NCBI GenBank assembly: GCA_030649735.1 | Contig: JAUSFL010000038.1 | Span: forward strand, 1 to 34,601 | Direction: 5' to 3' | DNA from: Candidatus Iainarchaeum sp. | Lineage (GTDB): Archaea > Iainarchaeota > Iainarchaeia > Iainarchaeales > UBA10191 | DNA length: 34,601 bases | In this document: piece after piece, positions 1,771 to 28,501 of the stretch | Layout of the letters: every line of letters begins with the position of its first letter | Position numbering within the stretch: position 1 is the first letter of the stretch | The notes under the pieces: generated by a model | Databases searched by the model: none | Seen by the model: only the letters and a program-made list of their open reading frames with translations | Told to the model about the DNA's origin: nothing | Made by a program: the position numbers and the translations under genes

Positions 1771-2790
1771 ATGACAGAATCAATCATTGTTGAAAAATTG
1801 AACAAAAGCTTTCCAATAAAATCGACAAATGGAAAAGGCCTTTTCGGCATTTTCGCAAAAAACAAGCAACGCTTTCAAGCCTTAAAGGAAGTCTCTTTCA
1901 GTGTAAAGCACGGGGAAATTCTAGGCTACATTGGGCCTAACGGGGCAGGCAAAAGCACTACAATCAAAACATTGACTGGAATTTTGACTCCAGATTCTGG
2001 AAAAGTGAGTGTTGAAGGCTTTACTCCATGGCTTGACAGGATGGAATTCACAAAGCACATTGGAGTAGTGTTTGGACAGCGCAGCCTTTTATGGTGGGAT
2101 CTTCCGCCAAAAGACATTTTTCCACTGTACAAGGAAATTTATGAAATTCCAAAAGAACAGTTTGAAAACCGCGTGAATTATTTGGTTGAAAAGTTTGAAG
2201 CGCAAGACTTCGTGAACACTCCCACAAGAAAGCTTTCTTTAGGCCAGAGAATGCGCTGTGAAATCATTGCCGCATTAATCCACAAGCCAAAAGTATTGTT
2301 TTTGGACGAGCCGACAATTGGCCTTGATGCGATTGCAAAGGAAAAAATGCGCTCTTTCATTCAAGAAATCAACCAAAAGGAAAAAACCACCGTGGTTTTG
2401 ACAACGCACGACATGAACGACATTGAAGCCTTGGCTGACAAAATAATAGTCCTAGATCAAGGAAGCATTATTTTTGAAGGCAAACCGGAAACTTTCAAGA
2501 AAATGCACGTGAAAGAAGCAGTCATGAGCTTTGAAGTCTTGGAAGTCAAGGAAAGCAATGAATTCATAAGCCTGCTTGCAGAAACAAAGCAAGTCGTGCA
2601 GGAAGGAAACTATTACGAGGTCTCATTCAACCTTGACAAAATGACAGCACAGCAGGCAGCTTCAAGGCTTTTTGCATGCTGCAATACCTCAAGCTTTCAA
2701 ATCACAGAACCGACTTTAGAAGAAATAATAAAGGAATTTTATGAACGCAGTCAAAAACTACAGAATCCTTCGCGAAAGCCTAAAGCTTGA
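1771..2790 (+). CDS. ABC exporter ATP-binding subunit (DrrA-like)
   Basis: Walker A GPNGAGKST, signature LSLGQ, Walker B LFLDEPTIGLD, TTHD. Confidence 0.95.
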   Translation: MTESIIVEKLNKSFPIKSTNGKGLFGIFAKNKQRFQALKEVSFSVKHGEILGYIGPNGAGKSTTIKTLTGILTPDSGKVSVEGFTPWLDRMEFTKHIGVVFGQRSLLWWDLPPKDIFPLYKEIYEIPKEQFENRVNYLVEKFEAQDFVNTPTRKLSLGQRMRCEIIAALIHKPKVLFLDEPTIGLDAIAKEKMRSFIQEINQKEKTTVVLTTHDMNDIEALADKIIVLDQGSIIFEGKPETFKKMHVKEAVMSFEVLEVKESNEFISLLAETKQVVQEGNYYEVSFNLDKMTAQQAASRLFACCNTSSFQITEPTLEEIIKEFYERSQKLQNPSRKPKA

Positions 2791-3538
2791 AGCCAAAAGG
2801 CTTTGGGAATACAAGCTAAACCTTGCATTCGACCTATTGCTCAGAATAGTGGACGCTGCATTATTCTTCGGATTCTGGGCAATAATTCTCGGGGCAAGCA
2901 CTAGCTTTGCAGGCTGGACATTGCAAGGGTTTTTGCTGATTTTTGCCTTTGAATCATACTTCATCAGCCTTGTTTTAGGATTCGCGTACGCTGGAATTTT
3001 CGTGCACAAAAGCATTCACAGCGCAGAACTGGATTCTTTCCTTACAAAGCCTGCAAGCCCTTGGCTTTTGGCAATGTCAAAAAACATCAGCATCAGCTAT
3101 TCAGGATACATTATTGGAACAATCGCGCTAATCATTGCGGCAATGCAAGGAGTCAATTTCGAAATTGAAAAGCTTGCAATAATCGCGGCAATGATTATTG
3201 CTGGCGGAGTAATAACCTGCCTTTTCGGGCTTTGCCTCGCATGCTCGGCATTCTGGCTTGGAAGAATGGAAAGCCTTGAAACAATCTTTGAAAGCCTTTG
3301 GAACTTTCAAGGCAGGCCGACAAACATTTTCCCGCCAGCATTGCAATTGCTTGTCGCATTCACTTTTCCATTCATTTTCACGCAGACAATTCCGGCGCTT
3401 GCAATTCTCGGAAAAATCGGCACAGCACAATTGCTGGTGTCTTTCATAGTGGAAATTGCAGTTGTGATAATGCTGTACTTCATTTTCAAAACATTATGGA
3501 AAAACGGGTTGAGGAATTATGAAAGCGGCAGCGGCTAA
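2741..3538 (+). CDS. ABC-2 family exporter permease
   Basis: About 6 TM segments, ELDSFLTKP motif, W(K/R)xGLRxYESG C-terminus; overlaps the ATPase gene. Confidence 0.88.
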   Translation: MNAVKNYRILRESLKLEAKRLWEYKLNLAFDLLLRIVDAALFFGFWAIILGASTSFAGWTLQGFLLIFAFESYFISLVLGFAYAGIFVHKSIHSAELDSFLTKPASPWLLAMSKNISISYSGYIIGTIALIIAAMQGVNFEIEKLAIIAAMIIAGGVITCLFGLCLACSAFWLGRMESLETIFESLWNFQGRPTNIFPPALQLLVAFTFPFIFTQTIPALAILGKIGTAQLLVSFIVEIAVVIMLYFIFKTLWKNGLRNYESGSG

Positions 3539-4313
3539 GTTCTGGACAGTAGCAAAAACCAGCTTTAAAAACCTGGTTGCTGAAAGATTTGACATTCTCA
3601 TTCACTTGGCATACTTGCCACTATTGGCAATAATCCTGTACTACATTTGGGGCATTATTTTCACTGCCCAAGGAAACAATTTCGGGTTTTCATTCAATGA
3701 AATCATAGCGTACGTGCTTGTCGCAGTGCTTTTGAGAAGAATCATTCAAAACGCCCACGTTGTAGAAATGGTTGAAGAAGACATTACAGAAGGCAGGATA
3801 ATCACTTACCTTTGCAGGCCGTTAAATTACTTCAATTTCATCCTGGCCAGGAGAAGCGCGCAAACAATGCTTTTTGCGGCAATAATAATTCCCTTAATTC
3901 TTGCAGCCACGTTTTTTTTAAATGCCCATTCCCAAATAGTGGAATTTTTTCTCGCTATCCTGCTTACTGGAATTGCCGCCTTGTTTACTACTGTGGAATT
4001 TTATTGCCTGGGATTATTGGCATTCTGGATTGAGAGAGTTTGGGGAATAAAGCATGCAGTGGACTGGGCGCAAGAATTTCTTTCAGGAACCTTGTTTCCA
4101 ATAACATTGTTTCCGCTGATTGTACAGGATGCATTAGTATTCCTTCCATTCAAGTACTTGGTTTACACTCCGACAATGCTTTTCATTGGAAAAGCAGGCG
4201 CAATTGACGCTTTAGCCGGAATTGCAGTGCTTGGAATTTGGACTATTGCGCTAGTTTTGCTCGCAAGGCTTTTATGGAAGGCCGGCCTGAAAAAACATGA
4301 CGGGAAAGGATGA
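3519..4313 (+). CDS. ABC-2 family exporter permease (second subunit)
   Basis: EDITEGRIITYLCRP, FLSGTLFPITLFP, LPFKYLVYTP motifs; hydrophobic. Confidence 0.88.
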   Translation: MKAAAAKFWTVAKTSFKNLVAERFDILIHLAYLPLLAIILYYIWGIIFTAQGNNFGFSFNEIIAYVLVAVLLRRIIQNAHVVEMVEEDITEGRIITYLCRPLNYFNFILARRSAQTMLFAAIIIPLILAATFFLNAHSQIVEFFLAILLTGIAALFTTVEFYCLGLLAFWIERVWGIKHAVDWAQEFLSGTLFPITLFPLIVQDALVFLPFKYLVYTPTMLFIGKAGAIDALAGIAVLGIWTIALVLLARLLWKAGLKKHDGKG

Positions 4314-4323
4314 AGGTGGTTTG

Positions 4324-4644
4324 ATGCAAATTCGAGAAGCCCAAGAAACAGTGAAAAAGCACTTGAAAGAAATAGGCTATGACAAGATTGAAACAACCCC
4401 AAGCCAGGCATTCCTGCACTTGATTGAAGAAACCGGCGAAGTTGCAAGAATTCTACTGCATCAGGAAACCAACAGGTCAAGCCTTCCTTCAACTTCAAAG
4501 CATTCAGAATTGAATGACGAAATCGCAGACGTTTTTTGGCAGACTTTAAAGCTTGCGAGCTACCTGGACATTGACCTTGAGGAAAGCTTCATCAAAAAGT
4601 ACGAAAAAAACAAGCTGAAGAAAGAAATAATCAGTGAAAAATAA
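4324..4644 (+). CDS. MazG-like all-alpha NTP pyrophosphohydrolase
   Basis: LIEETGEVA...DEIADVF...LDIDLEE acidic motifs; ATG at 4324 after AGGTGG (ORF track start 4297). Confidence 0.88.
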   Translation: MQIREAQETVKKHLKEIGYDKIETTPSQAFLHLIEETGEVARILLHQETNRSSLPSTSKHSELNDEIADVFWQTLKLASYLDIDLEESFIKKYEKNKLKKEIISEK

Positions 4645-5354
4645 TGAGTGAAGAGAAAGAAATCAAAATTAGATTACGCGATAACATTCCATTAAACGCG
4701 GTTTTTGAAAGAATTGAAAAGCTCGGCTTCAAAAAAGCTGAAGAAAAAATTCAGGTTGACAGTTATTTTGATTATGAGAATTTTTACCTCTCAGAAAACG
4801 CGCAGGCATTAAGAATCAGAACAGAAAATGGTGCTGAAAAATGCTTTGAATTCAAGGCATTGTTTTATTTGGAATGTAAAAAATACCCTTGGTTTGTTGA
4901 AGAAATCTGCATTGACTTTCTAATAAAAGACCAGCAAAAATTAAAGGAAGTTTTCGGGCTCTTGGGGATTGAAAGCACGAGTTCAAACCAGCCGGAAACT
5001 CCAAAAGAGCTTGTTGAACTCCTTGCTGAAAGCAAGATTATGAAAATGTTTGACATTAAAAAGCATAGGACCAGCTTTCAAAAGGAAGGAACTACAATTG
5101 AAGTTGACCAAGTTGACGGCTTGGGAAACTTTCTGGAAATAGAGTCTGACTTGGAACCTCACGAGCTATTGCACGAGTTTGGCTTTGGGGAATTAGGAAG
5201 CGAAGTAAGGTTTGGCTATGTGAGCGCTTTCAGGGAAAAGTTTTACGGAATAGACTATTCAAGCCAAAAGGAAAAGTTTGAGAAACAGCCAGACTGGAAT
5301 GTGCTTGAAAGCGAAAGAGAATTTTACAAAAAGCTTTGCGAAAAAAACAAGTAA
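4644..5354 (+). CDS. CYTH-domain protein (class IV adenylyl cyclase / triphosphate tunnel metalloenzyme)
   Basis: EKEIKIR (ExExK), QVDSYFD, ALRIR, KKHR, DQVDGLGNFLEIE. Confidence 0.88.
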   Translation: MSEEKEIKIRLRDNIPLNAVFERIEKLGFKKAEEKIQVDSYFDYENFYLSENAQALRIRTENGAEKCFEFKALFYLECKKYPWFVEEICIDFLIKDQQKLKEVFGLLGIESTSSNQPETPKELVELLAESKIMKMFDIKKHRTSFQKEGTTIEVDQVDGLGNFLEIESDLEPHELLHEFGFGELGSEVRFGYVSAFREKFYGIDYSSQKEKFEKQPDWNVLESEREFYKKLCEKNK

Positions 5355-5356
5355 TG

Positions 5357-6058
5357 TCAAAGCTGAGTTGGCTTTGGGATTTCATTTTCACCAAAATATT
5401 GAATGCAGCTTTCCAGCAATGCATTAAAGGAAGGATTTGATTGCCACTGTTCAGTTATGAATTTTCTTAAATTCTTGTGGACTGGATAGCCATAATCATA
5501 GTCGAGAACCAAGTCATTGAATTCCAAATTCAACAGCACAGTTAAGGCTTCTTTCAAATGTCCAGTGTTTTCTTGTCCAATTTTTTCGGCAATTTCGCGC
5601 CAATAATAATTGTGGAATTGAAAATGCATTATTTCATGGGCTGCTGTTTTGGTTGCATTAGCTGTAGACCCAAAAAACTTGAACATGAACCACGTGTCAT
5701 TTGGAGCCATATTATAAGGGCAGGATTGCATTGTCGTAATATAGCCAGTAATCTTTGGGAATGCATTGGGCTTTTCCATTACTTTCTCAAGCCTTTTGAA
5801 AAACTCCAATTCTATTGACTGCCAAGCCTGATTCACTGCAGAAACTTGAATTGCAAGCATTGGGGAATTGTAAACTCTTTTGTTAAATTCTTCAATCAAA
5901 GGACTTGCCTGCTCCAAGGACTTGCCTTCGGCAATTTCAAAAATTTTAGGGCTGAAAGTCTTTTTGACATCCTGCCAGCCGCAATCATTCCAGTTTGCAA
6001 TTCTGTGAAAATTCCAAATGTCTTTTTCCTTGTCAAAAGCAAAAGAAACAATGCCCAT
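5357..6058 (-). CDS. Hypothetical protein with a gluzincin-like HEXXH...E motif (possible metallopeptidase)
   Basis: AAHEIMHFQFH followed about 20 aa later by LKEALT. Confidence 0.55.
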   Translation of the reverse strand: MGIVSFAFDKEKDIWNFHRIANWNDCGWQDVKKTFSPKIFEIAEGKSLEQASPLIEEFNKRVYNSPMLAIQVSAVNQAWQSIELEFFKRLEKVMEKPNAFPKITGYITTMQSCPYNMAPNDTWFMFKFFGSTANATKTAAHEIMHFQFHNYYWREIAEKIGQENTGHLKEALTVLLNLEFNDLVLDYDYGYPVHKNLRKFITEQWQSNPSFNALLESCIQYFGENEIPKPTQL

Positions 6059-6099
6059 AGTAAATTAATTGAAAAAATAAGCATAAAAAGGCATTTTAG

Positions 6100-6110
6100 T
6101 TAGGCACTAC
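6100..6110 (+). repeat. Boundary motif TTAGGCACTAC, copy 1
   Basis: ag-TTAGGCACTAC-t; intergenic between 5357..6058 and 6123..6755. Confidence 0.95.
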
Positions 6111-6122
6111 TTTTTTAAAAAC

Positions 6123-6755
6123 TCAGAACTCCAGGCTGTTTCCTAATCTAGTGCCCCATTTTTTCGTGGCTTTGCTCGAATACATTCCTAAAGCATAGTA
6201 TGCTGCGCTGAAAGCAAGCAAGGCAATCAAGTAAATTATTGAGAATCCTTGAAAGAACACAAAGTATGCCAAAACCAGCTTTAGGGTCAAGCGGTAGTAA
6301 AAAAAGTAGTAAATTATTGGGTGGACTGCGTCTTCAATTCCCAATTTGTCAAAAAAGTCGTTTCCTAACTCGTCAAGGAATGCCGCAATAACCAAGACAA
6401 CCAATGGAATTAGCAGGAATTCTGGAATTCCAAAAAAGAACAATACTGCGACAATGCTTACTCCAACAACCCAAAAAGCCAAATTGTCAAGCTTTCCGGA
6501 AATCAAGACTCCAATCATTATTGCAGCCAAAATAGTTGCAGAAATCGGGGTAGCCATCATTGCCAAAGCCCACAAAATGCCAGCAATAGGCGCTAAAACA
6601 ACAGCAACCTTCTTGTTGAACACTCCCTCATCAAAAGCATCATCAATAAACTTGATTAAAAAGCCCAGCAAGGCAAACAAGGCAATAAAGCCGACATAAG
6701 CCATGAACGGACTGCTGGCCTTCAAGCCTTCAAAAAAAACCGTGGGAGTAAACAT
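6123..6755 (-). CDS. Integral membrane protein of unknown function (about 6-7 TM)
   Basis: Strongly hydrophobic 210 aa with two acidic loops (KFIDDAFDE, FLDELGND); GGTGAATT upstream; only gene between repeat copies 1 and 2. Confidence 0.8.
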   Translation of the reverse strand: MFTPTVFFEGLKASSPFMAYVGFIALFALLGFLIKFIDDAFDEGVFNKKVAVVLAPIAGILWALAMMATPISATILAAIMIGVLISGKLDNLAFWVVGVSIVAVLFFFGIPEFLLIPLVVLVIAAFLDELGNDFFDKLGIEDAVHPIIYYFFYYRLTLKLVLAYFVFFQGFSIIYLIALLAFSAAYYALGMYSSKATKKWGTRLGNSLEF

Positions 6756-6838
6756 TCAATAATTCACCAAAAACTCTAGTATTGAATAGCGTTAAAAATT
6801 TAAAAGAACAACGCTGGCTTCGACATAAGGTAAAGGAG

Positions 6839-6849
6839 TTAGGCACTAC
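6839..6849 (+). repeat. Boundary motif TTAGGCACTAC, copy 2
   Basis: gag-TTAGGCACTAC-a; intergenic. Confidence 0.95.
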
Positions 6850-6877
6850 AAAGTTAGAAAAAGAAATAAGTTAGAAA

Positions 6878-7015
6878 CTAATCATCTGCGCCGCAGCCGC
6901 TTCCAGAACAACTAGTGCTGCAGCCGCCAGCACCGCCGCAATCACTGCCAACAAGATCTAATTTTGCTTGTTTTCTATTCCAATAATCATACTTCTTCAA
7001 AACAGTCGAACTCAT
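6878..7015 (-). CDS. Putative RiPP precursor peptide, 45 aa: MSSTVLKKYDYWNRKQAKLDLVGSDCGGAGGCSTSCSGSGCGADD
   Basis: Hand-translated (not in the ORF track). ATG 7015 with GGTG 6 nt upstream, TAG 6878-6880; charged leader plus Cys/Gly/Ser core; directly downstream of rSAM/SPASM-GT-GNAT. Confidence 0.85.
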   Translation of the reverse strand: MSSTVLKKYDYWNRKQAKLDLVGSDCGGAGGCSTSCSGSGCGADD

Positions 7016-7062
7016 TTTAAGCACCAATACAATTGCGTCATTTGTTGCTTTTAAGATTTACT

Positions 7063-7080
7063 TATTTAAAAAGCTTTTCA
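7063..7080 (-). promoter_or_regulatory. Putative archaeal BRE/TATA promoter for the precursor peptide
   Basis: Minus strand reads TGAAAAGCTT-TTTAAATA about 48 nt upstream of the precursor ATG. Confidence 0.5.
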
Positions 7081-7107
7081 AAGTTGCCTGAAAGAATGCT
7101 TTCTCTC

Positions 7108-7577
7108 TCAATCTTTCAAGTAATAGGCAATTAGTTTTTCATTAATAAATGTTCCTTTTCGGGAAAAAGATTTTTGCCTTTCGCCTTCAACCTCAAAACC
7201 AAGGCTCAAATAGAATTTTAGGGCTTTTTCATTATCTTCAACAACCGAGCTTTCAATTTTAATTTTATTCTTATATTTTGAAATTGGCAAAGACAATAAT
7301 GACTTTGCTATGCCTCGCCTCCAATAATCTGGGTGGGTTGCCAAAACAACCAATTCTAAAATGTGAAACTTTTTGCCAGAATAATCTGCAAAGACCAAAA
7401 AACCAACTACTTTTCCTTCTTCTTCAAAAACCAGGCAATTATTCCTCCAGTCAATCCATTTTTTTGCTTTGGCAGAATCTGGAATATAATAGCCAGTAAC
7501 AAGGAATTTGTTGACTTTGTGGTGTAATGCAATGTCAAAAACTTCTATAAAATCAGAATTTTTGCTGGGCGAATCAT
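7108..7577 (-). pseudogene. GNAT family N-acetyltransferase with a 1-nt frameshift near its 5' end (real, or an assembly error)
   Basis: ATG 7577 gives MIRPAK then stops. Adding one A to the A5 run (T5 at 7559-7563) joins it to an open frame NSDFIEVFDIA...GKVVGF...ATHPDYWRRGIAKSLL...NEKALKFYLSLGF, a complete GNAT of about 156 aa. Confidence 0.8.
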
Positions 7578-7606
7578 AATTACACAGAATCCAATTGTTT
7601 TCATTG

Positions 7607-8779
7607 TCAAATTAAAGATTTATAAACTCCAATTGTCTCATCAATGTATTTTTTGAAATTATTGTTCTTTTCAACCCATTCTCTACCATTTTTTCCAATT
7701 TTCTTCAAGACAATCCTGTTTGAAACAATGAAAGAAAGCTTTTCAATATACTCTTTCCTGTTTCCTGGATTCACTTTTATTATGCCGTCATCAAACTCTT
7801 CCAAAGAATGATACAAGTTTATCTCATTACTTACTAGAACGGGCTTTCCTACAGAAAGAACCTCCCGAGGCATTATTGGCCCATGAATTTCCACTCCAAA
7901 ATTATGCTCTACAGAAAGCAGACAGTCAGAAGCCTTGATTATCGAAGGCACAATCCAAGGCGGAACAAAATCATGAAAGAAAACCCTTGAAGACAATCCT
8001 TTATTTGCCGCGAATTTTTGAAAATCTGCCTTGTTTTTACCGGCGCCAAAAAATAATATTGAAAAATCACCCTTAACTTTTGAAGCAGAATCAATTAACT
8101 CATAAATTCCTTTAGATTTGTGAATTTTGCCAAAATGAGTTAAAATTGCACCGCCCGGCTTTTTTCCAAAAAACTTTGAGAGCCTTACTTTTACAACATT
8201 TGGAGAAAAAGCTTTTGAATTCAAGGCACTGCTTAATTCCACAATATTTTTTTTCTTGACGCCTAATTGAGTAAACATTGGGCTTCCGCCCTTGAAAGTA
8301 ATGATTCTATCGGCTGAATTAATGACTCGCTTCAAGGCTGGGTAATAATGTTCCGAATTCAAAATGCGCGTCATGTCGCTTCCAGCATGAGTTATAACAA
8401 GCGGCTTTTTGAATTCTTTAGCCAAATAATGAGCGGCAAAACAATAAGGCATCAAATAAGAGCCTTCAATCAAGTCAATATCATTGTTTTCAATAACTTC
8501 AATTCCTTTAGAAATCAGCTTTTCAGTCATTGGATTGAATGAAGGAAAAAAAGAAGGCATTTCAAACGGAGACGTGTTGAAAACTTTGACGTTTTTTGGC
8601 TGATACTGCTCCAAGTCTTTCCCAGTCAAGGCTATTCTGCAATTTTCTTCAACTTCAAAAGCATTAGTTACTAAAAATATTTTGTTTTTTCTTTCGCCAA
8701 TTGCTTTTGACCGCCAGTATGCCTTAGAGCTTTCGCCGCCTTCAATTGGCGGGTATTTTGAGAATTTTAGAATATTCAT
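7607..8779 (-). CDS. Glycosyltransferase, GT-B fold (GT4 family)
   Basis: KYPPIEGG N-terminus, THAGSD, FGKIHKSKG, PREVLSVGKPVLVS; overlaps the rSAM stop codon. Confidence 0.88.
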   Translation of the reverse strand: MNILKFSKYPPIEGGESSKAYWRSKAIGERKNKIFLVTNAFEVEENCRIALTGKDLEQYQPKNVKVFNTSPFEMPSFFPSFNPMTEKLISKGIEVIENNDIDLIEGSYLMPYCFAAHYLAKEFKKPLVITHAGSDMTRILNSEHYYPALKRVINSADRIITFKGGSPMFTQLGVKKKNIVELSSALNSKAFSPNVVKVRLSKFFGKKPGGAILTHFGKIHKSKGIYELIDSASKVKGDFSILFFGAGKNKADFQKFAANKGLSSRVFFHDFVPPWIVPSIIKASDCLLSVEHNFGVEIHGPIMPREVLSVGKPVLVSNEINLYHSLEEFDDGIIKVNPGNRKEYIEKLSFIVSNRIVLKKIGKNGREWVEKNNNFKKYIDETIGVYKSLI

Positions 8780-9813
8780 TCAATCACTTTCCAACATTGA
8801 GGGTCAAGCCCATAATAACTCCCAGTAACAGCAAATGCTACTGCTGGACAACCCCTGCAATAATTGAGCAAATCGCAGTCTTTGCATTTCTGCATTTTTT
8901 CTATTTTCCTTGCATTATTCAATTCTTTTGAATTAAGAAAAATATCAAACAGACTTTGCTCGGGGACTTTCCCAATTATCAAAGGCATTCTTCTGCAAGC
9001 CATTACTTGCCCATCAGAAAGGATTGACAAGTGCTTTATTCCCATTGAACAGCCGGATTGAACTAATTCGTTATCTTTTTGAGGCTGAAACAAGCCCAAA
9101 TCTTGGTATAATAGAGTCCACAAGTGGTCTTTTCTTCCAAATCTAGTGCTGGTTTTTCCATTCAATTTTAAGTATTCTTCCAATACTTTCAAAAGAAAAT
9201 CACGATATTCTAAAGGCTTAAATATTTGGCTTTTAAGTTGTTTTCCCCGCCCAGTTGGAACAAGCCTTGCAAAATCAAAAACATCGACTTTATCTTTTAA
9301 GAAATGAATTAAAAGAATCAAGTCTGGAGCATTCTTTTTGCTTAAAGTGAACATGCAAACTGTCCGGATTCTATTATTTTTGAGTATTCTGAAAGCCCTC
9401 AAACTGTCCTTAAAACTTCCTTTCTTTCTAAAGAAATCGTGGGTTTCTTCAAGCCCATCAATGCTTATTTGATAGCCTTTAATTCCTAGCAGTTTCAGCT
9501 TCTTTGCAACAGAATTAGTCACTAAGTAAGGATTTCCCAAAATGCTGAATGCGATCCTTCGTTTCTTGCATTCTTCCAGAATTTGAAAAAAATCTTTTCT
9601 TAAAAGCGGATCGCCGCCAGAAAAATTTATTATTGGCTCGGCATTTAACTTTCTGCAAGTTGCAACAAAATCATCTAATACTTTCAAGCAATCCTTGAAC
9701 GATAATTGATTCTTTAATTCAGACTCATAAGTTGCAGAATCATACATGTAGCAATGCTTGCATTTTTGCTCGCAATTTGCAGTAACATGCCATTGTATTA
9801 CAAAAGCAGGCAT
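8776..9813 (-). CDS. Radical SAM/SPASM peptide maturase (resembles the ACGX-system type)
   Basis: CEQKCKHC (CX3CX2C), FSGGDP, SPASM C..G....DG...C and CKDCDLLNYCRGC...DPQCW; ATG 9813 after GGTGA (ORF track start 9822). Confidence 0.92.
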   Translation of the reverse strand: MPAFVIQWHVTANCEQKCKHCYMYDSATYESELKNQLSFKDCLKVLDDFVATCRKLNAEPIINFSGGDPLLRKDFFQILEECKKRRIAFSILGNPYLVTNSVAKKLKLLGIKGYQISIDGLEETHDFFRKKGSFKDSLRAFRILKNNRIRTVCMFTLSKKNAPDLILLIHFLKDKVDVFDFARLVPTGRGKQLKSQIFKPLEYRDFLLKVLEEYLKLNGKTSTRFGRKDHLWTLLYQDLGLFQPQKDNELVQSGCSMGIKHLSILSDGQVMACRRMPLIIGKVPEQSLFDIFLNSKELNNARKIEKMQKCKDCDLLNYCRGCPAVAFAVTGSYYGLDPQCWKVIE

Positions 9814-9907
9814 AATTATCACCTAATGAATACCAACTGCGCAACCAGTTCACTAATACAATTTCCAAAACAACTATTTTTTACATATAAGCATATTTCA
9901 AACACAA

Positions 9908-9918
9908 TTAGGCACTAC
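9908..9918 (+). repeat. Boundary motif TTAGGCACTAC, copy 3
   Basis: aa-TTAGGCACTAC-a; intergenic between rSAM and trpS. Confidence 0.95.
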
Positions 9919-9958: not shown

Positions 9959-11080
9959 TTAATCCCTTAAAATAAACTTATCTAGCCTCTTTTTTGCTTC
10001 TTCTCTTTTTTTCTGGTGGTCGTTTAGAAACTTTTTTATCTTATTTTCCAGTATTTTCTTGCAATCTCCACAGAGTATTTCTCCACACAAGCATCTTTTT
10101 CTTAAATCGCCTAATTCATTGTCATCCCACATAAATAATATGAAGTAATAATTGTAAACACTGCAAATATCTGGATTAGCTCCTGTTTTTCTTTGCTCTT
10201 CTGCGGTCGATTTTCCCCCAGTGAATGCATTTTTTACCTTTTTCTCAATTTGCTCGCCCGTATCAGTCGTGAATATTGCACTATCCATAATTGAAGAGCT
10301 CATTTTGCCTCCTTGTTTTAACCCCGGTAAAAACATAGAATGAATTGCTGCTGGTTTGTAATAGCCTAATTTTGGGAGAATGTCCCTGCAGACTCTAAAG
10401 TGAGGATCCTGGTCAATTGCATGGGGGATAAGGCAGGGAATGTTCTTTCCTTCTTTTATTGAAGGCAAAAATGCGGGGACTGATTGCATGCTTGTGAAGA
10501 AAATTTGGCCAACATTTGAGGATTCGTTAAAACCGAAAACTGCTCGGGCAGTTGAAAAAGTCAATTTTTTAGCAACTTTTGCAGCTTGCGGATAAAGAGT
10601 TTTAGCATAATCAAAATCGGAAAAAATGAATGTCTTTTTCTCATCAAACCCTAATGCTATAACATCAAGAGCGTTCTCATAAGCCATTCTATTAGTGAAT
10701 TCGGCAGTAAGCCCATCTTTAAAATAAAACTTTTCATCATCAGTCATTTGAAACCACAACTCAGCTCCAAACTTGTCCTGAAACCATTTAGTTAGAATCC
10801 AAGAGACTAAATGCCCCAAATGAGTATCTCCTGAAGGCCCTCTTCCAGTATAAAGAAAGAATTTATTTCCCTTCTCGTATTCACTCAAAAGCCAGTCAAG
10901 ATCCCTATGCGAAAAAAAGATTTTTCTCTTTATTAAAGGGTGAACTTCACCAGCGATCTGCTCAATTTTACTTATTATTTCATCACCAATCTTTTGAGTG
11001 CCAAAATCTCGAACTAGCTTATCATAATCTATATCCCCCTTAACTTCCCAAGGAGTCACAACAACTTCATCATTAACCAT
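9959..11080 (-). CDS. trpS: Tryptophanyl-tRNA synthetase, archaeal/eukaryal type, catalytically intact
   Basis: VTPWEV, YTGRGPSGDTHLGH (HIGH), QMTDDEK, AIDQDPHFR, KMSSS, CGDCK. Confidence 0.95.
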   Translation of the reverse strand: MVNDEVVVTPWEVKGDIDYDKLVRDFGTQKIGDEIISKIEQIAGEVHPLIKRKIFFSHRDLDWLLSEYEKGNKFFLYTGRGPSGDTHLGHLVSWILTKWFQDKFGAELWFQMTDDEKFYFKDGLTAEFTNRMAYENALDVIALGFDEKKTFIFSDFDYAKTLYPQAAKVAKKLTFSTARAVFGFNESSNVGQIFFTSMQSVPAFLPSIKEGKNIPCLIPHAIDQDPHFRVCRDILPKLGYYKPAAIHSMFLPGLKQGGKMSSSIMDSAIFTTDTGEQIEKKVKNAFTGGKSTAEEQRKTGANPDICSVYNYYFILFMWDDNELGDLRKRCLCGEILCGDCKKILENKIKKFLNDHQKKREEAKKRLDKFILRD

Positions 11081-11131: not shown

Positions 11132-12520
11132 TCAACTATTAACTATATTAAGAATAATCCCGGCCATTTTATTTTTACACCAACCACAATTAACTTCGCC
11201 CGAAACGCATTTTTCATAAATTTTTTCCAGAACATTGTCATTTGGCTCATTATATTTATAGAATTCAAAAACCTTACAATTTGAGATGTTATTTTTACAC
11301 GTAAAAGAATCGTTTATTTTCTTTATAATAATATCTTCAGAATCATCAAAGAATATGGTTGATTCTGGGTTGGCTGAACTTAATCTTCCTTTTCCTTCCA
11401 TTAAATTTTGCTCGTGCCTAAAATATAAGAACGATGGAATAACAGATTTGCTTGTTACTTTTCTTAAAAGATCTCGTATGATTCTGGCATGATCATCTTC
11501 TTCTATCCCGCCTATTCCAATAACTTTTTTATCGGATTTGGCATAACTAAAGAACATTGAATACATTAATAATGAAGAAAAAATGAACCCTAAATCAAAA
11601 TGGCCATAAGTATTATTAAATTTATTCAAAGTAAGTTTTTTTGCCAAGCAAAAAGCATCTATAAAATAGTCAATATCTTTTTGGCTTTGAATTATTATAT
11701 CTTCATCGCCCAAGCCAAGTTTCTTAAGCCATTTAACATAGTTATTTGTAAACGACCTAGATCGATCTAAAGAATCAACTCTTTTCCTGTCAATATATCC
11801 ATCAATGTCCAGTATCCAAACTTTAGCTGGAATCCCACAAGACTTTAGAAACTTCAATATTTCAACATCAGCCTTATTTCCTAATTGAAAGCCTCCAGAA
11901 GCAGCCAAACCAATTGCTGCTTCGACTTGTCTTTTCCCCATTAAACTTTCAATTATTTCATTAAAACCGCGCTGACCAATAAACATTCCGCGCCTAACTA
12001 AATAAAAGTCCCTAAAAAGAGTCTCTGCTTCCACTGGCATTTTTTCCACGCCAAAATGATTACTATCAGAAATAGTATCCCCAAAAAAGAGCGCATTTCT
12101 CCGTGAACCTTTATTTAGTGGCATTGTGGCTGAAGCTTTTAAGAAATTTGCATCAAAATCATTTAAGGTTTCACCATCATGAAAACAAAAATTTAATTCT
12201 CTGAGCTTATCCCTTGGAACATAAACGGCTTTTTGACCTTCAAATAGTTTAATCTTTTCCAAAGGGATATAATCCACAACATAGAATAAGAATTCTTCAC
12301 TATCAGAAAACTCCATTCGCTTATAAAAATGGAAAGTATCAATCTCTATTCCAGTTTCTTCTTTAAATTCTCTAAAAATAGCCTCTTCGGGAGTTTCAGA
12401 ACATTCAATTTGACCCCCAAAAAGCCCCCAAGTTCCGGGGAAAGAAATGTTTGGATTATCATCTCTTAACTGCAATAAATACTCATCTTTATATCTTACG
12501 ATTAGACTCGCGCATTTCAT
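11132..12520 (-). CDS. Fusion of an N-terminal Nudix hydrolase with a degenerate TrpRS-like class Ic domain
   Basis: Nudix box GGQIECSETPEEAIFREFKEETG; then RRGMFIGQRG, GLAASGGFQLGN (altered HIGH), GIEEDDHARIIRD (altered GxDQDPH), RLSSA (altered KMSSS), SGEVNCGWCK; likely ATG 12520. Confidence 0.85.
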   Translation of the reverse strand: MKCASLIVRYKDEYLLQLRDDNPNISFPGTWGLFGGQIECSETPEEAIFREFKEETGIEIDTFHFYKRMEFSDSEEFLFYVVDYIPLEKIKLFEGQKAVYVPRDKLRELNFCFHDGETLNDFDANFLKASATMPLNKGSRRNALFFGDTISDSNHFGVEKMPVEAETLFRDFYLVRRGMFIGQRGFNEIIESLMGKRQVEAAIGLAASGGFQLGNKADVEILKFLKSCGIPAKVWILDIDGYIDRKRVDSLDRSRSFTNNYVKWLKKLGLGDEDIIIQSQKDIDYFIDAFCLAKKLTLNKFNNTYGHFDLGFIFSSLLMYSMFFSYAKSDKKVIGIGGIEEDDHARIIRDLLRKVTSKSVIPSFLYFRHEQNLMEGKGRLSSANPESTIFFDDSEDIIIKKINDSFTCKNNISNCKVFEFYKYNEPNDNVLEKIYEKCVSGEVNCGWCKNKMAGIILNIVNS

Positions 12521-12525
12521 ACAAA

Positions 12526-13626
12526 TCAACTCACGGAGTTTCCCACAACTCTGCAAATTTCTTGGATTTCTTCACATTTAAGTTCTGAAAACATCGGCAA
12601 AGAGAGAACTTCGCCAGAAATTTTTTCGGTTATCGGAAACATTCCTTTCTTCAATCGTAATTCATTATATGCTTCTTGCAAGTGAATTGGAACTGGATAA
12701 TGAATTCCAAAAGCAATCCCCGCATTAGTTAAAGCAGCCATTAATTGTTGTCTCAGATTGGTCCTGATAATATACAAATGGTAAATGTGCTTTCTATTAG
12801 GCAGTTCTTTTGGAGTTATTACCCCATAGGGTTCTAATAACTCGTTATAAATTCTAGCGTTTTTTCGCCTAGCATTGTTCCATTTTTCCAAATGATTCAG
12901 CTTTACTCTTAAAACAGCGGCTTGCAGATTGTCTAAACGATTATTGAATCCAATACAGCTGTGATAGTATTTTATCTTACTTCCATAATTTCTTAATTCT
13001 CTGATTCGCTCTGCAAATTCATTATCGCTTGTTACAACAGCCCCACCATCGCCATAAGCCCCAAGATTTTTTCCAGGATAAAAAGAAAAGCAACCAACGT
13101 CAGTAACTGGCAACTTTTTTTGGCGATATTCTGCCCCATGAGCTTGACAGCAATCTTCAATTATTTTAATATCATGTTTATCTGCAATTTCTTTAATTTG
13201 CTTCATTTCAGCTGGTTGGCCATACAAATGCACAGGAATTATTGCCTTAGTCTTTTTTGTGATTGCCACCTCCAATTTCGAAACATCCAGATTATAACTT
13301 TCAGAGTCACAATCTACAAAAACCGGTTTTGCGCCAGAAAAGCTTATTGCAAGCGCGGTTGCAATGAAAGTATTTGGAGTTGTTATTACCTCATCACCGC
13401 GCTTTACCCCTGAAGCCTTAAGAGCCAAGTGTAGCGCTGAAGTCCCCGAATCAACGCTAACACAATTCTTTGCTCCACAAAAATTAGCATACTCTTTCTC
13501 AAACAACTCAACATCAGCGCCTAAAATGTAGTCAGCCCTTTGAACAGCTTCAGAAATCGCAGCATCGATTTCTGGTTTTATGCTCTCATACTGCCTTTTT
13601 AAGTCTACAAAGCTTATTTTCGCCAT
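12526..13626 (-). CDS. DegT/DnrJ/EryC1/StrS family PLP sugar aminotransferase
   Basis: SGTSALHLAL, PVHLYGQ, EDCCQAHG, FSFYPGKNLGAYGDGG, NRLD; likely ATG 13626. Confidence 0.95.
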   Translation of the reverse strand: MAKISFVDLKRQYESIKPEIDAAISEAVQRADYILGADVELFEKEYANFCGAKNCVSVDSGTSALHLALKASGVKRGDEVITTPNTFIATALAISFSGAKPVFVDCDSESYNLDVSKLEVAITKKTKAIIPVHLYGQPAEMKQIKEIADKHDIKIIEDCCQAHGAEYRQKKLPVTDVGCFSFYPGKNLGAYGDGGAVVTSDNEFAERIRELRNYGSKIKYYHSCIGFNNRLDNLQAAVLRVKLNHLEKWNNARRKNARIYNELLEPYGVITPKELPNRKHIYHLYIIRTNLRQQLMAALTNAGIAFGIHYPVPIHLQEAYNELRLKKGMFPITEKISGEVLSLPMFSELKCEEIQEICRVVGNSVS

Positions 13627-24847: not shown

Positions 24848-27800
24848 TTAATTACATGTTAAATTCTCGGCAGGTCTTGGATAGGCGGTCTTTATAGCCC
24901 CATTCTTTCCAAAACCAACTCCAGAATCTATTCCTTTGTCAACTACTACTATTATTCTATACCCATTTACTATGGCCTTAGAAAAATAACAATATACTTT
25001 GGATGATTCTTTTTTGATTGAACCTGAATCTCCCACAGTATCAAAAACTAACTTCTTAATATTACTTTCAGACACGTTTGATGTGACAGCCGAAAATCTT
25101 GTTCCGCCACTTATTTCTCCAGTAACATGTTTTTTCCATAAGTGTTGCCAACCCCAATCATTAGTGCCTTTTTCAATCCAACGCACTGCAGAACTAGAAT
25201 CTTTGCCAGCATATTTTACAACTTCAAGGTCTTTTCCACCATTTTTTATTACTCCTTCCAAAATCTCATTACTCGCTCCACTTCCTTTCAATCTGACTAT
25301 TGCGGATTCTCCTTTGGAAACAAACCATTCTGTTAATTTTGGGAACTTGCTTGTTATTTTACCGCTTGCAAAGTCTATTTTTAGCAAAGCCAATTCTGCA
25401 GCCCTGGCTACTTTACTGCCTTGCGTGGATTTTTTCGCGCCATTCAAAATCAAGTTAATCTTTCTGGTAGTGGTTGAAATCTTTTCAGCAGTTCCAATAA
25501 TTTTGATGATTTTGCTGCCTTTAGCCAAGACATTCAAGGCCTTGACAGCGCCAGTCTCTAGAGTTGCTGCAGGAACAATCATTAAGACAGTAGAGCCAGC
25601 GTCAAAAGCGCACCATACAGTAAACCAGCCATCATCAAGACAGCTTCCAATAGTGAAAAACTTGGCGCCTTCCCAACCAAGGCCAACCCAATCAACTTCT
25701 TCTATCGTAAATGGAATTTCATCCTGAACGCAAACATCAGAATTGTCATAACAAGTTGCGCTTGATAATCCTTGCTTTTGAACAAGAACACTTTTTGATA
25801 TTCCCGCACTTACTGCCACTGCTTTGGGAGTGCAAAATTCAACTAGAGAAACAGCCTTCCAATCACTGGTTTTTTTGGAATTGTCTTTTCCAACAGCATA
25901 TGCCCTAAAATACATTGCTCCAGATGCAGTGCAAGAGCGTAAGGCGAGGATTGAAGCATAATTTCCAGAAATGTTGATTTTAGGATAAGAAACTTTCGAA
26001 ATGCTAGTTCCATTAGTGTAAGGCGAATACTCCACTCCGGTTTCTTTAATGCTGCCTGAAACCTGCCATTCCAAACTGCCAATAAAATCCTTTTCAATAC
26101 TGTCTGTGAATTCTGTTACAGTGACAGAAACTCCCGAAGACCCACTGCAAGCCCCACCAGAACAACCATTAGAGCAATTTTCAACAAGCCTTGCGGCATT
26201 GCTTGAAGAACAGCTGGCGTTTGAACTGCCCGCATTATTGCAAGTAAAAGATTGGTAATTCTGGTAAACGCTTCCAGACTGGCAGAACTTGCTTCCAGCA
26301 AAAGCGTCAGTTCCGCATTGAGAGTTAGAAGAGCAAGTTATTGATTGGTTAACGCATTTTCCGCCAGAACAAGTTTGACTGGAACTGCAGGTTTGAACTG
26401 TTTTAGACTCAAGCTTTGAATTTGAAAAGCAAGAATTGCTCGAGCATCCTTTAGTGTAGCAATAACGCTCTTTCTTTACCTTATTGCCTTCACAATAATT
26501 GCTCCAAGAATCGCAAGAATTGCTTCCACAGTCTTCAGCCAATTCCTGCTTTTTCTTGCAAGAATCAAACCAATACAAGTCATTGTTAGAGCAAGACTGA
26601 TACGATTGAGGAATGCAAGCTGGTTGTTTGCATGCCCCATTAGAACAGCCGTTAAGGCACGACTCTACAAGGCGGTCGCTTGTGCTATTCGAGCATTTGG
26701 CGTTTTGTGTTCCGGAATTCTTGCAAGAGAATGTTTTGAATTTTTGGTAAACTTTATTGTTTTTGCAAAAAGGATTTCCGGTAAAGTCATTAGTTCCACA
26801 GTCAGAATTTGAACTGCAAAGCGGTGAATTACAGTTTCCATTAGAGCAGCCAAAACTGCAGTTCTCGTTTCCGACACTGGAAAGACTTGAAGGCCATTCT
26901 AAAAAAGAGTCAGAATCATAATTACTGCAAGTTTGCTTTACAGAACCGCTACATCTAGTCTGCCCGCTGTTGCATTCGTTTGAATTGCAAGAGCCATTAT
27001 AACAACCATTTGAGCAAGGGAATGCATTAGTGAGACCGCAATTGTCAGTCCTAAAAGCCATTGTACTGGCGTCAGAGCAAATCCAGCCGGGAGCACATTG
27101 ATTGCAAGACCCATTGGCACAACCATTAGGACAGGCCTCAATTACCCGATTTTCATCATTGTAAAAGCAAAATCCAGAATCGCAAGAGAAAGTTCGGAAA
27201 GTGTCACTGGCAGACCCAAAAGAACAAAAAGGCATGCTCAACCAACTATCTTGCCCGCAAGAACTGCTTGAAGAACAAGCTTTTTGTTGTTTAGTGCTAT
27301 AAAAAACTTCATTGAGTCCAGGATATCCTGTACTTCTGCCATTATCCCAAGAAGCGATAATAAATCCATTACCTGAAAGAATTCTTGGAAAATTAACAAA
27401 AGAATCAACATTAATCTCTTCAGGCAGGCTCCAAGAAAGCCCGTCAACGCTTTTGTAATAGTAAAACTTTGTGTCAGTGTTCAAAAAAGACCCAAAAACC
27501 ATGTGAAATCCTTCCGAATTAGAACTTATTGAAAACCGCCAAGGCGCAGTCCTTGAGAATATTATTCTTGAACTTTGCGACCAATTCAACCCAAAATCAA
27601 CTGATTTTCGCACAAAAATAGCATTTCCGCAAGACCAGGAAATAATCAAGCTTTCAGGGCTATCTTTCTTTCCCAAAACATTTTTTTCAAATACTGGCTG
27701 ATTATTGCCGCTCAACTCACAATTCAATCGACCATTATAGTCTGAAAGCTTCTGGATTGAACTCCAATTAGCGCCACTATCAGAGCTTAAAGTAGTATAA

Positions 27801-28501
27801 AGTCCGGTGCTAGTTGTAAAAGAAACCAAGATTTTAGAACCATTAGGCAGCATTGCAGGATATCTTGAACTGCTTGAAATCTGCTTTTTTGCAGACCAAT
27901 TCAATCCAGAATCAGAACTGTTAGAGTAATAAATTGTGCCATACTCGCCAGTATTGCCTTTCTCAAGCCAAACCAAATGCAATTTTCCATTGAAAAATGA
28001 AATAACCGGGGAAATAACATTAACATAATTTCCACTGTACAAAAGCTTCGCAGGACTCCAAGTGTTTCCCAAATCCAGACTTTTTATAAAATATATTTTG
28101 CCAAAATTTGAAACAAAGCCATCTTCCTGCCAAGCCAAATAAATGTTTTGTCCATCAGCAAAAACACTAAAATCCCCAGCTACATTCAAATCAGTTATCT
28201 TTCTTGGCATTGACCAAGAATTTCCTTTATCAACGCTTTGTGAAAAAACAATATTCCTCCGCTTTATTCCTTCTCGATAAGTTTCCTGCGTAGAAATCCA
28301 AAAAGCGGCCAAACCTTGCGAGGTTTTAACAATTCTTGAAGAACTCACAAAGTTAACATAAGTATTTCCCGAATCAACATTATTTGTAATTTGTCCTTGA
28401 TACCAGTTAATCAACGGTTGCTTTTCACTCGAAACAAAACAAGCAGACACCAGAACCAAAACTAGCAATAAAAAAAGTCTCCTCAAAGAAAACTCCCCCA
28501 C
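24848..28501 (-). CDS. Large secreted polymorphic-toxin-like protein: signal peptide, Asp-box beta-propeller, Cys-rich repeats, C-terminal nuclease-like domain
   Basis: RRLFLLLVLVLVSA signal; six SxDxGxxWS-type boxes; repeated CxNGCSNGxC; C-terminal WIEKG..GWQHLWKKH...F...IKTAYP. Confidence 0.75.
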   Translation of the reverse strand: MGEFSLRRLFLLLVLVLVSACFVSSEKQPLINWYQGQITNNVDSGNTYVNFVSSSRIVKTSQGLAAFWISTQETYREGIKRRNIVFSQSVDKGNSWSMPRKITDLNVAGDFSVFADGQNIYLAWQEDGFVSNFGKIYFIKSLDLGNTWSPAKLLYSGNYVNVISPVISFFNGKLHLVWLEKGNTGEYGTIYYSNSSDSGLNWSAKKQISSSSRYPAMLPNGSKILVSFTTSTGLYTTLSSDSGANWSSIQKLSDYNGRLNCELSGNNQPVFEKNVLGKKDSPESLIISWSCGNAIFVRKSVDFGLNWSQSSRIIFSRTAPWRFSISSNSEGFHMVFGSFLNTDTKFYYYKSVDGLSWSLPEEINVDSFVNFPRILSGNGFIIASWDNGRSTGYPGLNEVFYSTKQQKACSSSSSCGQDSWLSMPFCSFGSASDTFRTFSCDSGFCFYNDENRVIEACPNGCANGSCNQCAPGWICSDASTMAFRTDNCGLTNAFPCSNGCYNGSCNSNECNSGQTRCSGSVKQTCSNYDSDSFLEWPSSLSSVGNENCSFGCSNGNCNSPLCSSNSDCGTNDFTGNPFCKNNKVYQKFKTFSCKNSGTQNAKCSNSTSDRLVESCLNGCSNGACKQPACIPQSYQSCSNNDLYWFDSCKKKQELAEDCGSNSCDSWSNYCEGNKVKKERYCYTKGCSSNSCFSNSKLESKTVQTCSSSQTCSGGKCVNQSITCSSNSQCGTDAFAGSKFCQSGSVYQNYQSFTCNNAGSSNASCSSSNAARLVENCSNGCSGGACSGSSGVSVTVTEFTDSIEKDFIGSLEWQVSGSIKETGVEYSPYTNGTSISKVSYPKINISGNYASILALRSCTASGAMYFRAYAVGKDNSKKTSDWKAVSLVEFCTPKAVAVSAGISKSVLVQKQGLSSATCYDNSDVCVQDEIPFTIEEVDWVGLGWEGAKFFTIGSCLDDGWFTVWCAFDAGSTVLMIVPAATLETGAVKALNVLAKGSKIIKIIGTAEKISTTTRKINLILNGAKKSTQGSKVARAAELALLKIDFASGKITSKFPKLTEWFVSKGESAIVRLKGSGASNEILEGVIKNGGKDLEVVKYAGKDSSSAVRWIEKGTNDWGWQHLWKKHVTGEISGGTRFSAVTSNVSESNIKKLVFDTVGDSGSIKKESSKVYCYFSKAIVNGYRIIVVVDKGIDSGVGFGKNGAIKTAYPRPAENLTCN

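Follow-up and report, generated by a model that had tools for sequence, protein, structure and literature searches.

We analysed a 34,601-nucleotide (nt) stretch of DNA from Candidatus Iainarchaeum sp. (contig JAUSFL010000038.1, positions 1 to 34,601; hereafter the window), and identified between positions 6878 and 9813 what is probably a three-component system of the RiPP type (a peptide made on the ribosome and modified after its translation), made up of a 45-amino-acid (aa) Cys-rich precursor with a predicted promoter of its own, an ACGX-like radical S-adenosylmethionine (rSAM)/SPASM maturase and a BshA-like glycosyltransferase (GT) of the GT4 type. Comparison across related loci points to these three genes as a real RiPP-like unit, a GT-linked sister of the canonical ACGX system that occurs in archaea, in bacteria of the candidate phyla radiation (CPR) and on unclassified metagenome contigs. 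The product of the cluster is most likely a modified, sugar-decorated Cys-rich peptide of a so far uncharacterised kind. A preliminary description of the window had proposed a co-oriented series of rSAM, GT, GNAT acetyltransferase and peptide genes; all four do lie on the minus strand, and the core of the system comprises the following features:

8776 to 9813, minus strand: radical SAM/SPASM maturase gene, ACGX-like, 345 aa (TIGR04340; Pfam Radical_SAM and SPASM)
7607 to 8779, minus strand: GT4-type glycosyltransferase gene, BshA-like, 390 aa (PF00534; BshA structure match)
7063 to 7072, minus strand: TATA-like box TTTTTAAATA, 47 nt upstream of the ATG of the peptide gene
7022 to 7025, minus strand: Shine-Dalgarno-like site GGTG, 6 nt ahead of the ATG of the peptide gene
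6878 to 7015, minus strand: precursor peptide gene with ATG start, 45 aa, MSSTVLKKYDYWNRKQAKLDLVGSDCGGAGGCSTSCSGSGCGADD (open reading frame (ORF), alignment A3 and profile match)

The 45-aa precursor, which had been described as hidden, is confirmed at these positions and has homologues that form a leader family, but it was not wholly hidden, as the protein collection includes an identical 45-aa protein from the same contig (P0121). It joins a leader, MSSTVLKKYDYWNRKQAKLDLV, that carries an L-x-K-Y-x-Y-W-N motif to a Cys/Gly/Ser core with 4 Cys, and an alternative upstream TTG start at 7027 would lengthen it to 49 aa. Both of the expression signals proposed earlier are present. The GGTG site has counterparts at similar spacing ahead of the gene for tryptophanyl-tRNA synthetase (TrpRS) and ahead of a gene for a 210-aa membrane protein. 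Of the 28 window genes surveyed, 10 have a Shine-Dalgarno-like word in front of them. The identical 10-mer TTTTTAAATA recurs about 50 nt upstream of the ATG of an orthologous peptide (MSSPKSILEKYDYWNKTDKSLKSAQTECGGCGGCGGGGTGD; leader pattern MSS..L.KYDYWN) in genome G125, a member of the same archaeal order, which suggests that the TATA-like box is a putative promoter of the precursor itself.

We aligned 26 related precursors (alignment A3), each of which has a leader, a variable spacer and then a core with 3-17 Cys; a Trp is invariant within the leader pattern E-x3-L-x-[KR]-[YF]-x-Φ-W, and conserved Cys columns are also evident. Across the 26 cores the residue before Cys is Gly in 123 cases and Ser in 39, and the commonest Cys-Cys spacing is 2 residues (108 of 186 gaps). 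The peptide at locus L095 shares the core segment GAGGCSTSCSGSGCG and ends in …CGGGECGAGGCSTSCSGSGCGWD, giving a core nearly the same as that of the window peptide, and the cores at L141 and L160 consist almost purely of Cys and Gly (e.g., CGGCGGGCGGCGGGC). When the A3 profile was searched against the host genome, the window peptide was recovered as a single copy (E 4.3e-10). We also observed loci with two tandem precursor genes between rSAM and GT (L102, L107 and L112), whose leaders are common and whose Cys-rich cores are different.

These observations bear on two simpler accounts of the small ORF. That it is a chance intergenic open frame would fit its shortness, its low complexity and the fact that it matches no curated family in NCBIfam or Pfam (TIGR04341 included), but homologues with the same leader occur in G125 and in at least 25 other loci, the profile match reaches E 4e-10, and a ribosome site and a conserved TATA-like box precede it; we find this account barely credible. 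The alternative that the peptide is an unmodified Cys-rich mini-protein that binds metal or an Fe-S cluster, or an accessory or co-substrate of the rSAM, rather than a natural-product precursor, draws on the resemblance of its C-x-x-C repeats to metal-binding motifs and on the absence of a conserved leader peptidase or exporter. Against it stands the classic RiPP pattern of a conserved leader with a hypervariable core, tandem precursors, and a peptide always found beside an rSAM of the peptide-maturase type, and we consider it very unlikely.

The association of the three genes was surveyed in an rSAM-centred set (80 species-representative genome loci retrieved by rSAM alignment), a GT-centred set (80 metagenome loci retrieved by GT alone), the 196 genomes of the order to which the window's host belongs, and a shared-neighbour set of 39 loci, window included. 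Among the GT-centred loci, which include several near-duplicates and are mutually related, so that counts do not equal independent events, 34 of 80 also have an rSAM that is at least 42% identical, encoded in the same orientation as the GT in 34/34 and separated from it by a gap of 1.5 kb or less in 31/34. A small Cys/Gly/Ser-rich ORF is present in 30 of these 34 loci, and 29 of the 30 ORFs have the leader (27 by the strict pattern, plus L124 and L131, which read YANW), with the consensus L-x-[KR]-[YF]-x-Φ-W. By comparison, the 38 GT loci without an rSAM yielded two Cys-rich ORFs in total, neither leader-bearing, and the 8 with only a 28-34% identical rSAM yielded one, without leader; most of these absences of an rSAM reflect short contigs, as the GT has flanks of 1.5 kb or more to both sides in just 9 of the 38. 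The preliminary description had staked its proposal on a small Cys-rich ORF being conserved beside rSAM-GT pairs, and such an ORF is found not only in the 30 of 34 loci but also in G125, L016 and L059.

Within the host order, close relatives of the rSAM were found in G125 (77% identity) and G127 (60%). G125 has the peptide, rSAM and GT (61% identity) in a row and is the only other genome of the 196 with all three, and the GT occurs in 3/196, so the cluster is rare and patchy in this order. Further afield, the rSAM-centred set separates by the peptides that its members adjoin: rSAMs at 38-41% identity (gut Firmicutes, Collinsella, Treponema) follow canonical ACGX peptides (MALxNLxxWN…ACGxACG…), and rSAMs at 43-55% adjoin [YF]W-leader peptides with Cys/Gly/Ser cores (L016, L017, L019-L021, L024, L059). 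A GT homologue of at least 35% identity adjoins the rSAM in 3 of these 80 loci (L016, L018, L059). Gene order varies, with rSAM-peptide-GT in 13 loci, peptide-GT-rSAM in 8, and other arrangements besides. Only the GT (36) and rSAM (31) are widely shared across the 39 loci of the neighbour survey, followed by a 191-aa protein without Pfam family (11), a methyltransferase (6) and a GNAT (4); the same survey showed neither a protease nor an exporter as a conserved neighbour of the trio.

Two of the rSAM-GT loci have unusual layouts. At L018, from an uncultured archaeon (2059-8096), three further radical SAM genes, of which one is of the B12-binding type, flank the pair. At L059, from a Candidatus Shapirobacteria metagenome-assembled genome (MAG; 3962-6708), the rSAM ORF is 282 aa long and matches query residues 6-244, with the SPASM domain seemingly missing, the peptide ORF overlaps the rSAM end, and an extension brings the GT to 581 aa.

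The window rSAM begins at ATG 9813, 5 nt after an AGGTGA site, with an alternative GTG at 9822 lying inside that ribosome site. Its Pfam matches are to Radical_SAM (PF04055; residues 13-165, 70.3 bits against a gathering score of 29.5) and SPASM (PF13186; residues 258-317, 37.4 bits against 21.5), which place it in the radical SAM/SPASM superfamily; in the same scan nothing was found N-terminal of the CX3CX2C motif, with the core starting at residue 13 and no RiPP recognition element (RRE). The QWHVT..C...C.HCY, KDHLW and DPQCW motifs that had suggested a likeness to the ACGX maturase are present and are conserved in an alignment of 27 sequences. That likeness is borne out insofar as TIGR04340 is the top family and is covered nearly end to end (339.5 bits, profile positions 2-340 of 341), but the score lies under the curated cut-off of 400 bits. 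Second best is SbtM (TIGR04082; 217.1 bits, cut-off 350), matched over profile positions 198-503 only, followed by the weaker NCBIfam models AhbD (156 bits), MftC (TIGR03962; 89.9, cut-off 265), PapB (81.8, cut-off 340) and StsB (75.9, cut-off 625). The public call for this gene (P0001, 323 aa) starts at an internal Met and omits the CX3CX2C motif, so its start is mis-annotated. Smithella and Desulfobacula loci (L072-L094) were considered as possible SbtM loci and rejected, their N-termini (…IAWEVTRSCNLNC…) having no Q-W-H-x-T motif; by eye, the rSAMs of these loci look like the AhbD/NirJ type.

Scores against TIGR04340 are graded among the relatives, from 550-606 bits in canonical members (4/4 tested) through 467 bits for the CPR type and 350 bits for the GT-less L017 to 298-340 bits in the four GT-linked relatives tested. 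The window rSAM, the same four relatives and L017 also match SbtM, at 196-225 bits. In a FastTree phylogeny of 113 rSAMs (local supports only, no SbtM sequence included), canonical and CPR rSAMs form a 45-row clade with support 100, in which no member has a GT. GT-linked rSAMs fall outside this clade in three groups, consisting of the window rSAM with G125 and G127 (support 99), a clade of 20 rows (support 99), and L162/L120/L145; branching among the groups is unresolved, and the canonical clade nests within the same larger group as the window rSAM. Some of these rSAMs are already labelled 'ACGX system' by JGI.

Immediately downstream, the GT start codon overlaps the rSAM stop (ATGA). The GT matches Glycos_transf_1 (PF00534; 60.2 bits, 2.3e-16, gathering score 26.4), with PF13477 on its N-terminal half, and all its Pfam matches are to models of group 1/GT4, none of them a GT2 family, in agreement with the earlier assignment to GT4 rather than GT2. 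Its top NCBIfam match is BshA (TIGR03999), at 54.7 bits against a cut-off of 273.7, and a profile of 5 orthologues aligns over its full length with the BshA structure 5d00 (E 2.3e-22), supporting a GT-B two-domain layout; these matches indicate an enzyme that is BshA-like in fold and sequence and not a BshA orthologue. An N-terminal KYPPIEGG motif is invariant in 5/5 orthologues. We also observed GTs of this KYPPIEGG subfamily in other settings (L129, L132, L156; L144; L135), namely beside a protein of about 955 aa with TPR and metallo-beta-lactamase domains, beside Asn-synthase-like and SQHop-cyclase-like genes, and in a cluster that also has two additional rSAMs, a gene of HPr-kinase-like type and a small Cys-containing ORF of another kind; the subfamily may comprise general peptide-tailoring GTs. 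Complex prediction for GT and peptide, from alignments A2 and A3 respectively, gave a score of 0.00 where the mark was 0.32, and it carries no weight here in either direction.

What the GT acts on can be read in more than one way. Gene association suggests that the peptide is a substrate of both the rSAM and the GT, but the GT could instead act on an excised small molecule, as MftF does, or be a mere neighbour that makes an unrelated BshA-like thiol or a glycan precursor. Consistent with such an acceptor, BshA, the closest characterised GT, acts on the small molecule L-malate, neither protease nor exporter is conserved beside the trio, and two sugar-nucleotide genes (a DegT aminotransferase and a GFO/IDH/MocA oxidoreductase) lie 3-5 kb upstream of the cluster. 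Mycofactocin, a glycosylated cofactor derived from a peptide by a SPASM enzyme, offers a precedent in the accessible part of its source (PMC9679996). Three observations speak against an acceptor other than the peptide: the GT stays with the rSAM and peptide across gene orders, often tens of bases away or overlapping by a codon; no MftB-, MftD- or MftE-like and no BshB- or BshC-like genes are found among the conserved neighbours; and the BshA score is far under its cut-off. We regard an acceptor other than the intact peptide as distinctly improbable, and glycosylation of the peptide as the better reading.

Between the GT and peptide genes lies a fourth gene:

7108 to 7604, minus strand: GNAT acetyltransferase gene, apparently frameshifted (PF00583)

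The GNAT matches PF00583 (55.5 bits, 8.6e-15), but there is no intact single-frame version with a start codon. Its domain frame has no ATG, GTG or TTG before 7398, whereas the ATG at 7604 lies in another frame and reads MKTIGFCVIMIRPAK, 19 codons that stop just past an A5 run at 7563-7559; matches to Acetyltransf_3 and Acetyltransf_4 set in immediately past this run, at open-frame residue 16. The frameshift at A5, within the stretch 7545-7611, could be a real pseudogene mutation or a homopolymer error. A Logan contig of X1 is identical over 6800-9900, A5 run included, and is not independent evidence, as X1 is possibly the source sample; fragments from X2, about 97-98% alike, cover neither the frameshift site nor the peptide. 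GNAT homologues occur in 4 of the 39 surveyed loci, window counted, and the other three are near-identical loci with the GNAT on the opposite strand. A frameshifted gene of such restricted occurrence argues against acylation as part of the conserved system, and we consider the GNAT a probable non-conserved passenger and the acylation previously proposed unlikely.

Our proposed pathway would start with transcription of the 45-aa precursor from its own promoter, after which the leader motif L-x-[KR]-[YF]-x-Φ-W-(N) would direct it to the enzymes. The ACGX-like rSAM/SPASM enzyme would then modify core Cys residues (in C-x-x-C repeats, usually with Gly before Cys), and the radical step that we favour is hydrogen abstraction at the Cys beta-carbon, leading, at Gly-Cys sites, to a thiooxazole of the SbtM type or to oxidised Cys of a related form. 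Finally, the BshA-like retaining GT4 would add a sugar to a Ser, Thr or Cys of the peptide, probably N-acetylhexosamine (HexNAc) from a UDP-sugar, as its similarity to BshA suggests for both the retaining mechanism and the donor. The absence of a conserved protease or exporter hints weakly that the product acts in the cell or at its surface, and a thiol-rich metal-binding or redox peptide is plausible.

For the radical chemistry, we tentatively prefer Cys-centred oxidation or heterocyclisation of the thiooxazole kind, by analogy with SbtM and at somewhat short of an even chance. Three features favour it: the family scores differ, Gly-Cys dominates the cores, and some relatives have nearly pure Cys/Gly cores. 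As described in the available part of its source, SbtM forms a thio(seleno)oxazole at a conserved Gly-Cys motif via Cys beta-hydrogen abstraction, a reaction that costs 4 Da and leaves the thiol open to alkylation (PMC9204691). The preliminary description had instead assumed classical Cys-to-carbon thioether crosslinks of the sactipeptide and ranthipeptide kind, with a product glycosylated by the GT and possibly acylated by the GNAT. SPASM maturases of Cys-rich peptides do often form thioethers, sequence similarity to the window rSAM extends to just two solved structures, that of the sactisynthase SkfB (6efn, E 1.4e-10) and that of an unnamed rSAM, and PapB and StsB are among the weaker NCBIfam matches. 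But PapB reaches only 82 bits and the sactipeptide-type StsB 76 against 217 for SbtM, the nearest characterised family, no RRE precedes the rSAM core, cores made of little but Cys and Gly (CGGCGGGCGGCGGGC, L141, L160) leave the Gly alpha-carbon as sole acceptor, and the GNAT is frameshifted and not conserved. Thioether crosslinking, which in the earlier text was an assumption only, is on this balance a possible but rather doubtful alternative, and chemistry of some other kind is a little more doubtful still.

Several findings weigh against the three-part system and the SbtM-like chemistry that we propose. The rSAM has no recognisable RRE for leader binding; it scores under the cut-offs of both TIGR04340 and SbtM and lacks the N-terminal extension of about 197 residues found in SbtM; AhbD, a SPASM enzyme of the heme pathway, also scores well; and the similarity to SbtM may reflect common ancestry of the SPASM group and not common chemistry. 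The peptide and GT are not invariably present: neither was found in G127 (83% complete) despite its 60%-identical rSAM, 4 of the 34 rSAM+GT loci have no Cys-rich ORF, and no Cys-rich precursor was found at the archaeal locus L018, which has both rSAM and GT. Nine GT loci with flanks of at least 1.5 kb have no rSAM, some of them standing beside other gene sets, which indicates that the GT subfamily is not exclusive to this system. In an hhalign comparison of the new and canonical ACGX leaders, VLKKYDYWN pairs with ALSNLSGWN at a probability of 1.2% and E 0.042; an L-x2-Φ-x2-W-N recognition motif common to both is plausible, as a lead and not as proof of homology. Lastly, no RNA run was among the listed sequencing runs that contain window DNA.

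The set as a whole had been described as fitting between two copies of a 12-nt repeat, and it is indeed bracketed by copies of GTAGTGCCTAAC:

6838 to 6849, minus strand: GTAGTGCCTAAC copy, just downstream of the peptide gene
9907 to 9918, minus strand: GTAGTGCCTAAT, a one-mismatch copy of GTAGTGCCTAAC, about 95 nt upstream of the rSAM start

The window holds 7 copies against 0.03 expected, all on the minus strand (6099, 6838, 9907, 14764, 22601, 23516 and 24445), and the host genome (G000) holds 32, mostly intergenic, against 0 for a reversed control. This abundance marks GTAGTGCCTAAC as a general feature of the genome and not a cluster boundary, and the copies flanking the cluster were likewise rejected as ends of a mobile element, given that they are genome-wide and not cluster-specific. 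T-rich sequence usually follows GTAGTGCCTAAC, and several copies have a TGCTCCGCAA-like word 30-45 nt downstream; the motif may serve in regulation, belong to a small repeat element or mark an RNA end.

The host genome is archaeal (Archaea_SRP 135.7 bits, over cut-off), 1.28 Mb in size and 92.7% complete, and the nearest named relatives of its TrpRS are from Micrarchaeia, Micrarchaeota and Woesearchaeota, at 66-69% identity. We infer a small-genome DPANN-like archaeon, probably genome-reduced and symbiotic. The runs containing window DNA that were found by a sequencing-run search are groundwater metagenomes. An Rfam scan of the window gave nothing at gathering scores. Upstream of the cluster, the first landmark is:

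9959 to 11080: gene for a genuine TrpRS

Directly upstream of this gene, a 474-aa protein (11132-12556, minus strand) fuses a NUDIX domain with a divergent class-I Trp/Tyr-tRNA-synthetase-like domain, and a 1217-aa ORF further along (24848-28501, minus strand) has no NCBIfam match at E 1e-5. Two minus-strand genes, 5357-6058 and 6123-6755, lie downstream of the peptide gene; the first encodes a protein of 233 aa that contains an HEIMH (HExxH-like) motif, the second the 210-aa protein, which is a multi-pass membrane protein. These were considered as protease or exporter of the cluster and rejected, having no Pfam family and no homologues among the related loci. A check for an empty site in genomes of the same genus and family was uninformative, as TrpRS identity in these genomes is no higher than 33-52% and they yielded no counterpart of the 210-aa membrane protein.

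What is new here is a GT-linked sister of the ACGX system that has a separate precursor family, marked by a clear leader motif, and a GT4 that looks like an obligate partner. A literature search, with most subscription journals beyond its reach, found no publication on the ACGX system or TIGR04340 and, judging from titles and abstract starts, none on a combination of RiPP, GT and radical SAM enzyme in archaea or DPANN. The combination, which the preliminary description had called unfamiliar from archaea, stands as such within that scope, although rSAMs of the ACGX clade do occur in archaea, such as one in a Methanobrevibacter MAG (L025). ACGX rSAM maturases have been in the databases for more than a decade, with no published chemistry found, and the present system is compact enough (three genes, about 2.9 kb) to be directly testable by co-expression. 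Its chemistry would show how the ACGX/SbtM SPASM branch acts on cysteine, whether RiPPs can be glycosylated by a GT4, and why a genome-reduced archaeon needs such a peptide. A broader reading, which we hold to be improbable at present, is that this is a so far undescribed RiPP class common to ultra-small-genome archaea and CPR bacteria, in which an SbtM-like rSAM would make many Gly-Cys thiooxazoles or oxidised-Cys heterocycles in a hypervariable core and the GT4 would add HexNAc, giving a poly-thiol metal-binding or redox product that stays in the cell or at its surface and is not an exported antibiotic. If true, it would add a new chemotype, and no RiPP pathway from DPANN archaea would have been characterised before it.

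Among known systems, the heterocycloanthracin/sonorensin type of thiazole/oxazole-modified microcin (TOMM; TIGR03601) has similar Cys-Gly/Ser repeat cores, a likeness of composition only: 10 of the 26 A3 peptides match TIGR03601 weakly (best E 1.8e-4), the window peptide does not, and no cyclodehydratase or dehydrogenase genes accompany it. Mycofactocin brings together the MftA peptide, the MftC rSAM/SPASM enzyme and the MftF glycosyltransferase, according to the available part of its source (PMC9679996). It resembles the window system in joining a SPASM maturase of a small peptide to a GT and in needing no exporter, the mycofactocin product being intracellular, but the window rSAM falls well under the MftC cut-off and no MftB, MftD or MftE equivalents are conserved. 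MftA ends in Val-Tyr, whereas the window precursor is Cys-rich and does not.

Glycosylated RiPPs such as the glycocins (sublancin, glycocin F), NAI-112 and cacaoidin have in common with the proposed system a ribosomal peptide and Cys/Ser/Thr glycosylation by a cluster enzyme, which is predicted here. Glycocin transferases are GT2-type S/O-glycosyltransferases, and the class is defined by a disulfide-stapled helical-hairpin peptide. The window GT, in contrast, is of the PF00534/GT4 type and BshA-like, the window peptide has no helical-hairpin disulfide pattern, and glycocins have no rSAM; the window cluster is not a glycocin cluster. A closer parallel for the transferase is the cacaoidin cluster, in which a GT4 has been proposed to add the sugar, and as far as the accessible part of that article goes, glycosylated RiPPs are few and cacaoidin is the only one for which a GT4 has been proposed (PMC8068269).

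On the side of the maturase, neither family score nor RRE places the window rSAM with the sactipeptide or ranthipeptide maturases. SbtM/SbtA is the nearest family with a known reaction, and Gly-Cys is the commonest dipeptide context in cores of the window family. Score and architecture nonetheless exclude the window rSAM from SbtM itself, as it has no counterpart to the N-terminal region of about 197 residues, and the window peptide has no selenocysteine. We know of no SbtM system with a GT.

The closest comparison is with the ACGX system (TIGR04340 with TIGR04341), which is defined bioinformatically only. TIGR04340 is the top, full-length family of the window rSAM, the architecture without N-terminal RRE is the same, and both systems have a short precursor with Trp in its leader and a core of repeated Cys flanked by small residues. 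They differ in that the window rSAM scores 339.5 bits where canonical members reach 550-606, and in that TIGR04341 (cut-off 28 bits) matches 13/13 canonical peptides, used as a positive control, but neither the window peptide nor any of the A3 peptides (0/26), with no match anywhere in the host genome at E up to 10. Window-family cores are built from G-C-x and C-x-x-C, compared with A-C-G and Pro/Lys/Glu linkers in canonical cores, where Ala precedes Cys in 70 of 75 cases, and the dedicated GT4 of the window system is absent from the 45-row canonical clade. With its rSAM under the TIGR04340 cut-off and its peptide outside TIGR04341, the window cluster is best described as a sister of the ACGX system and not as a member of it.

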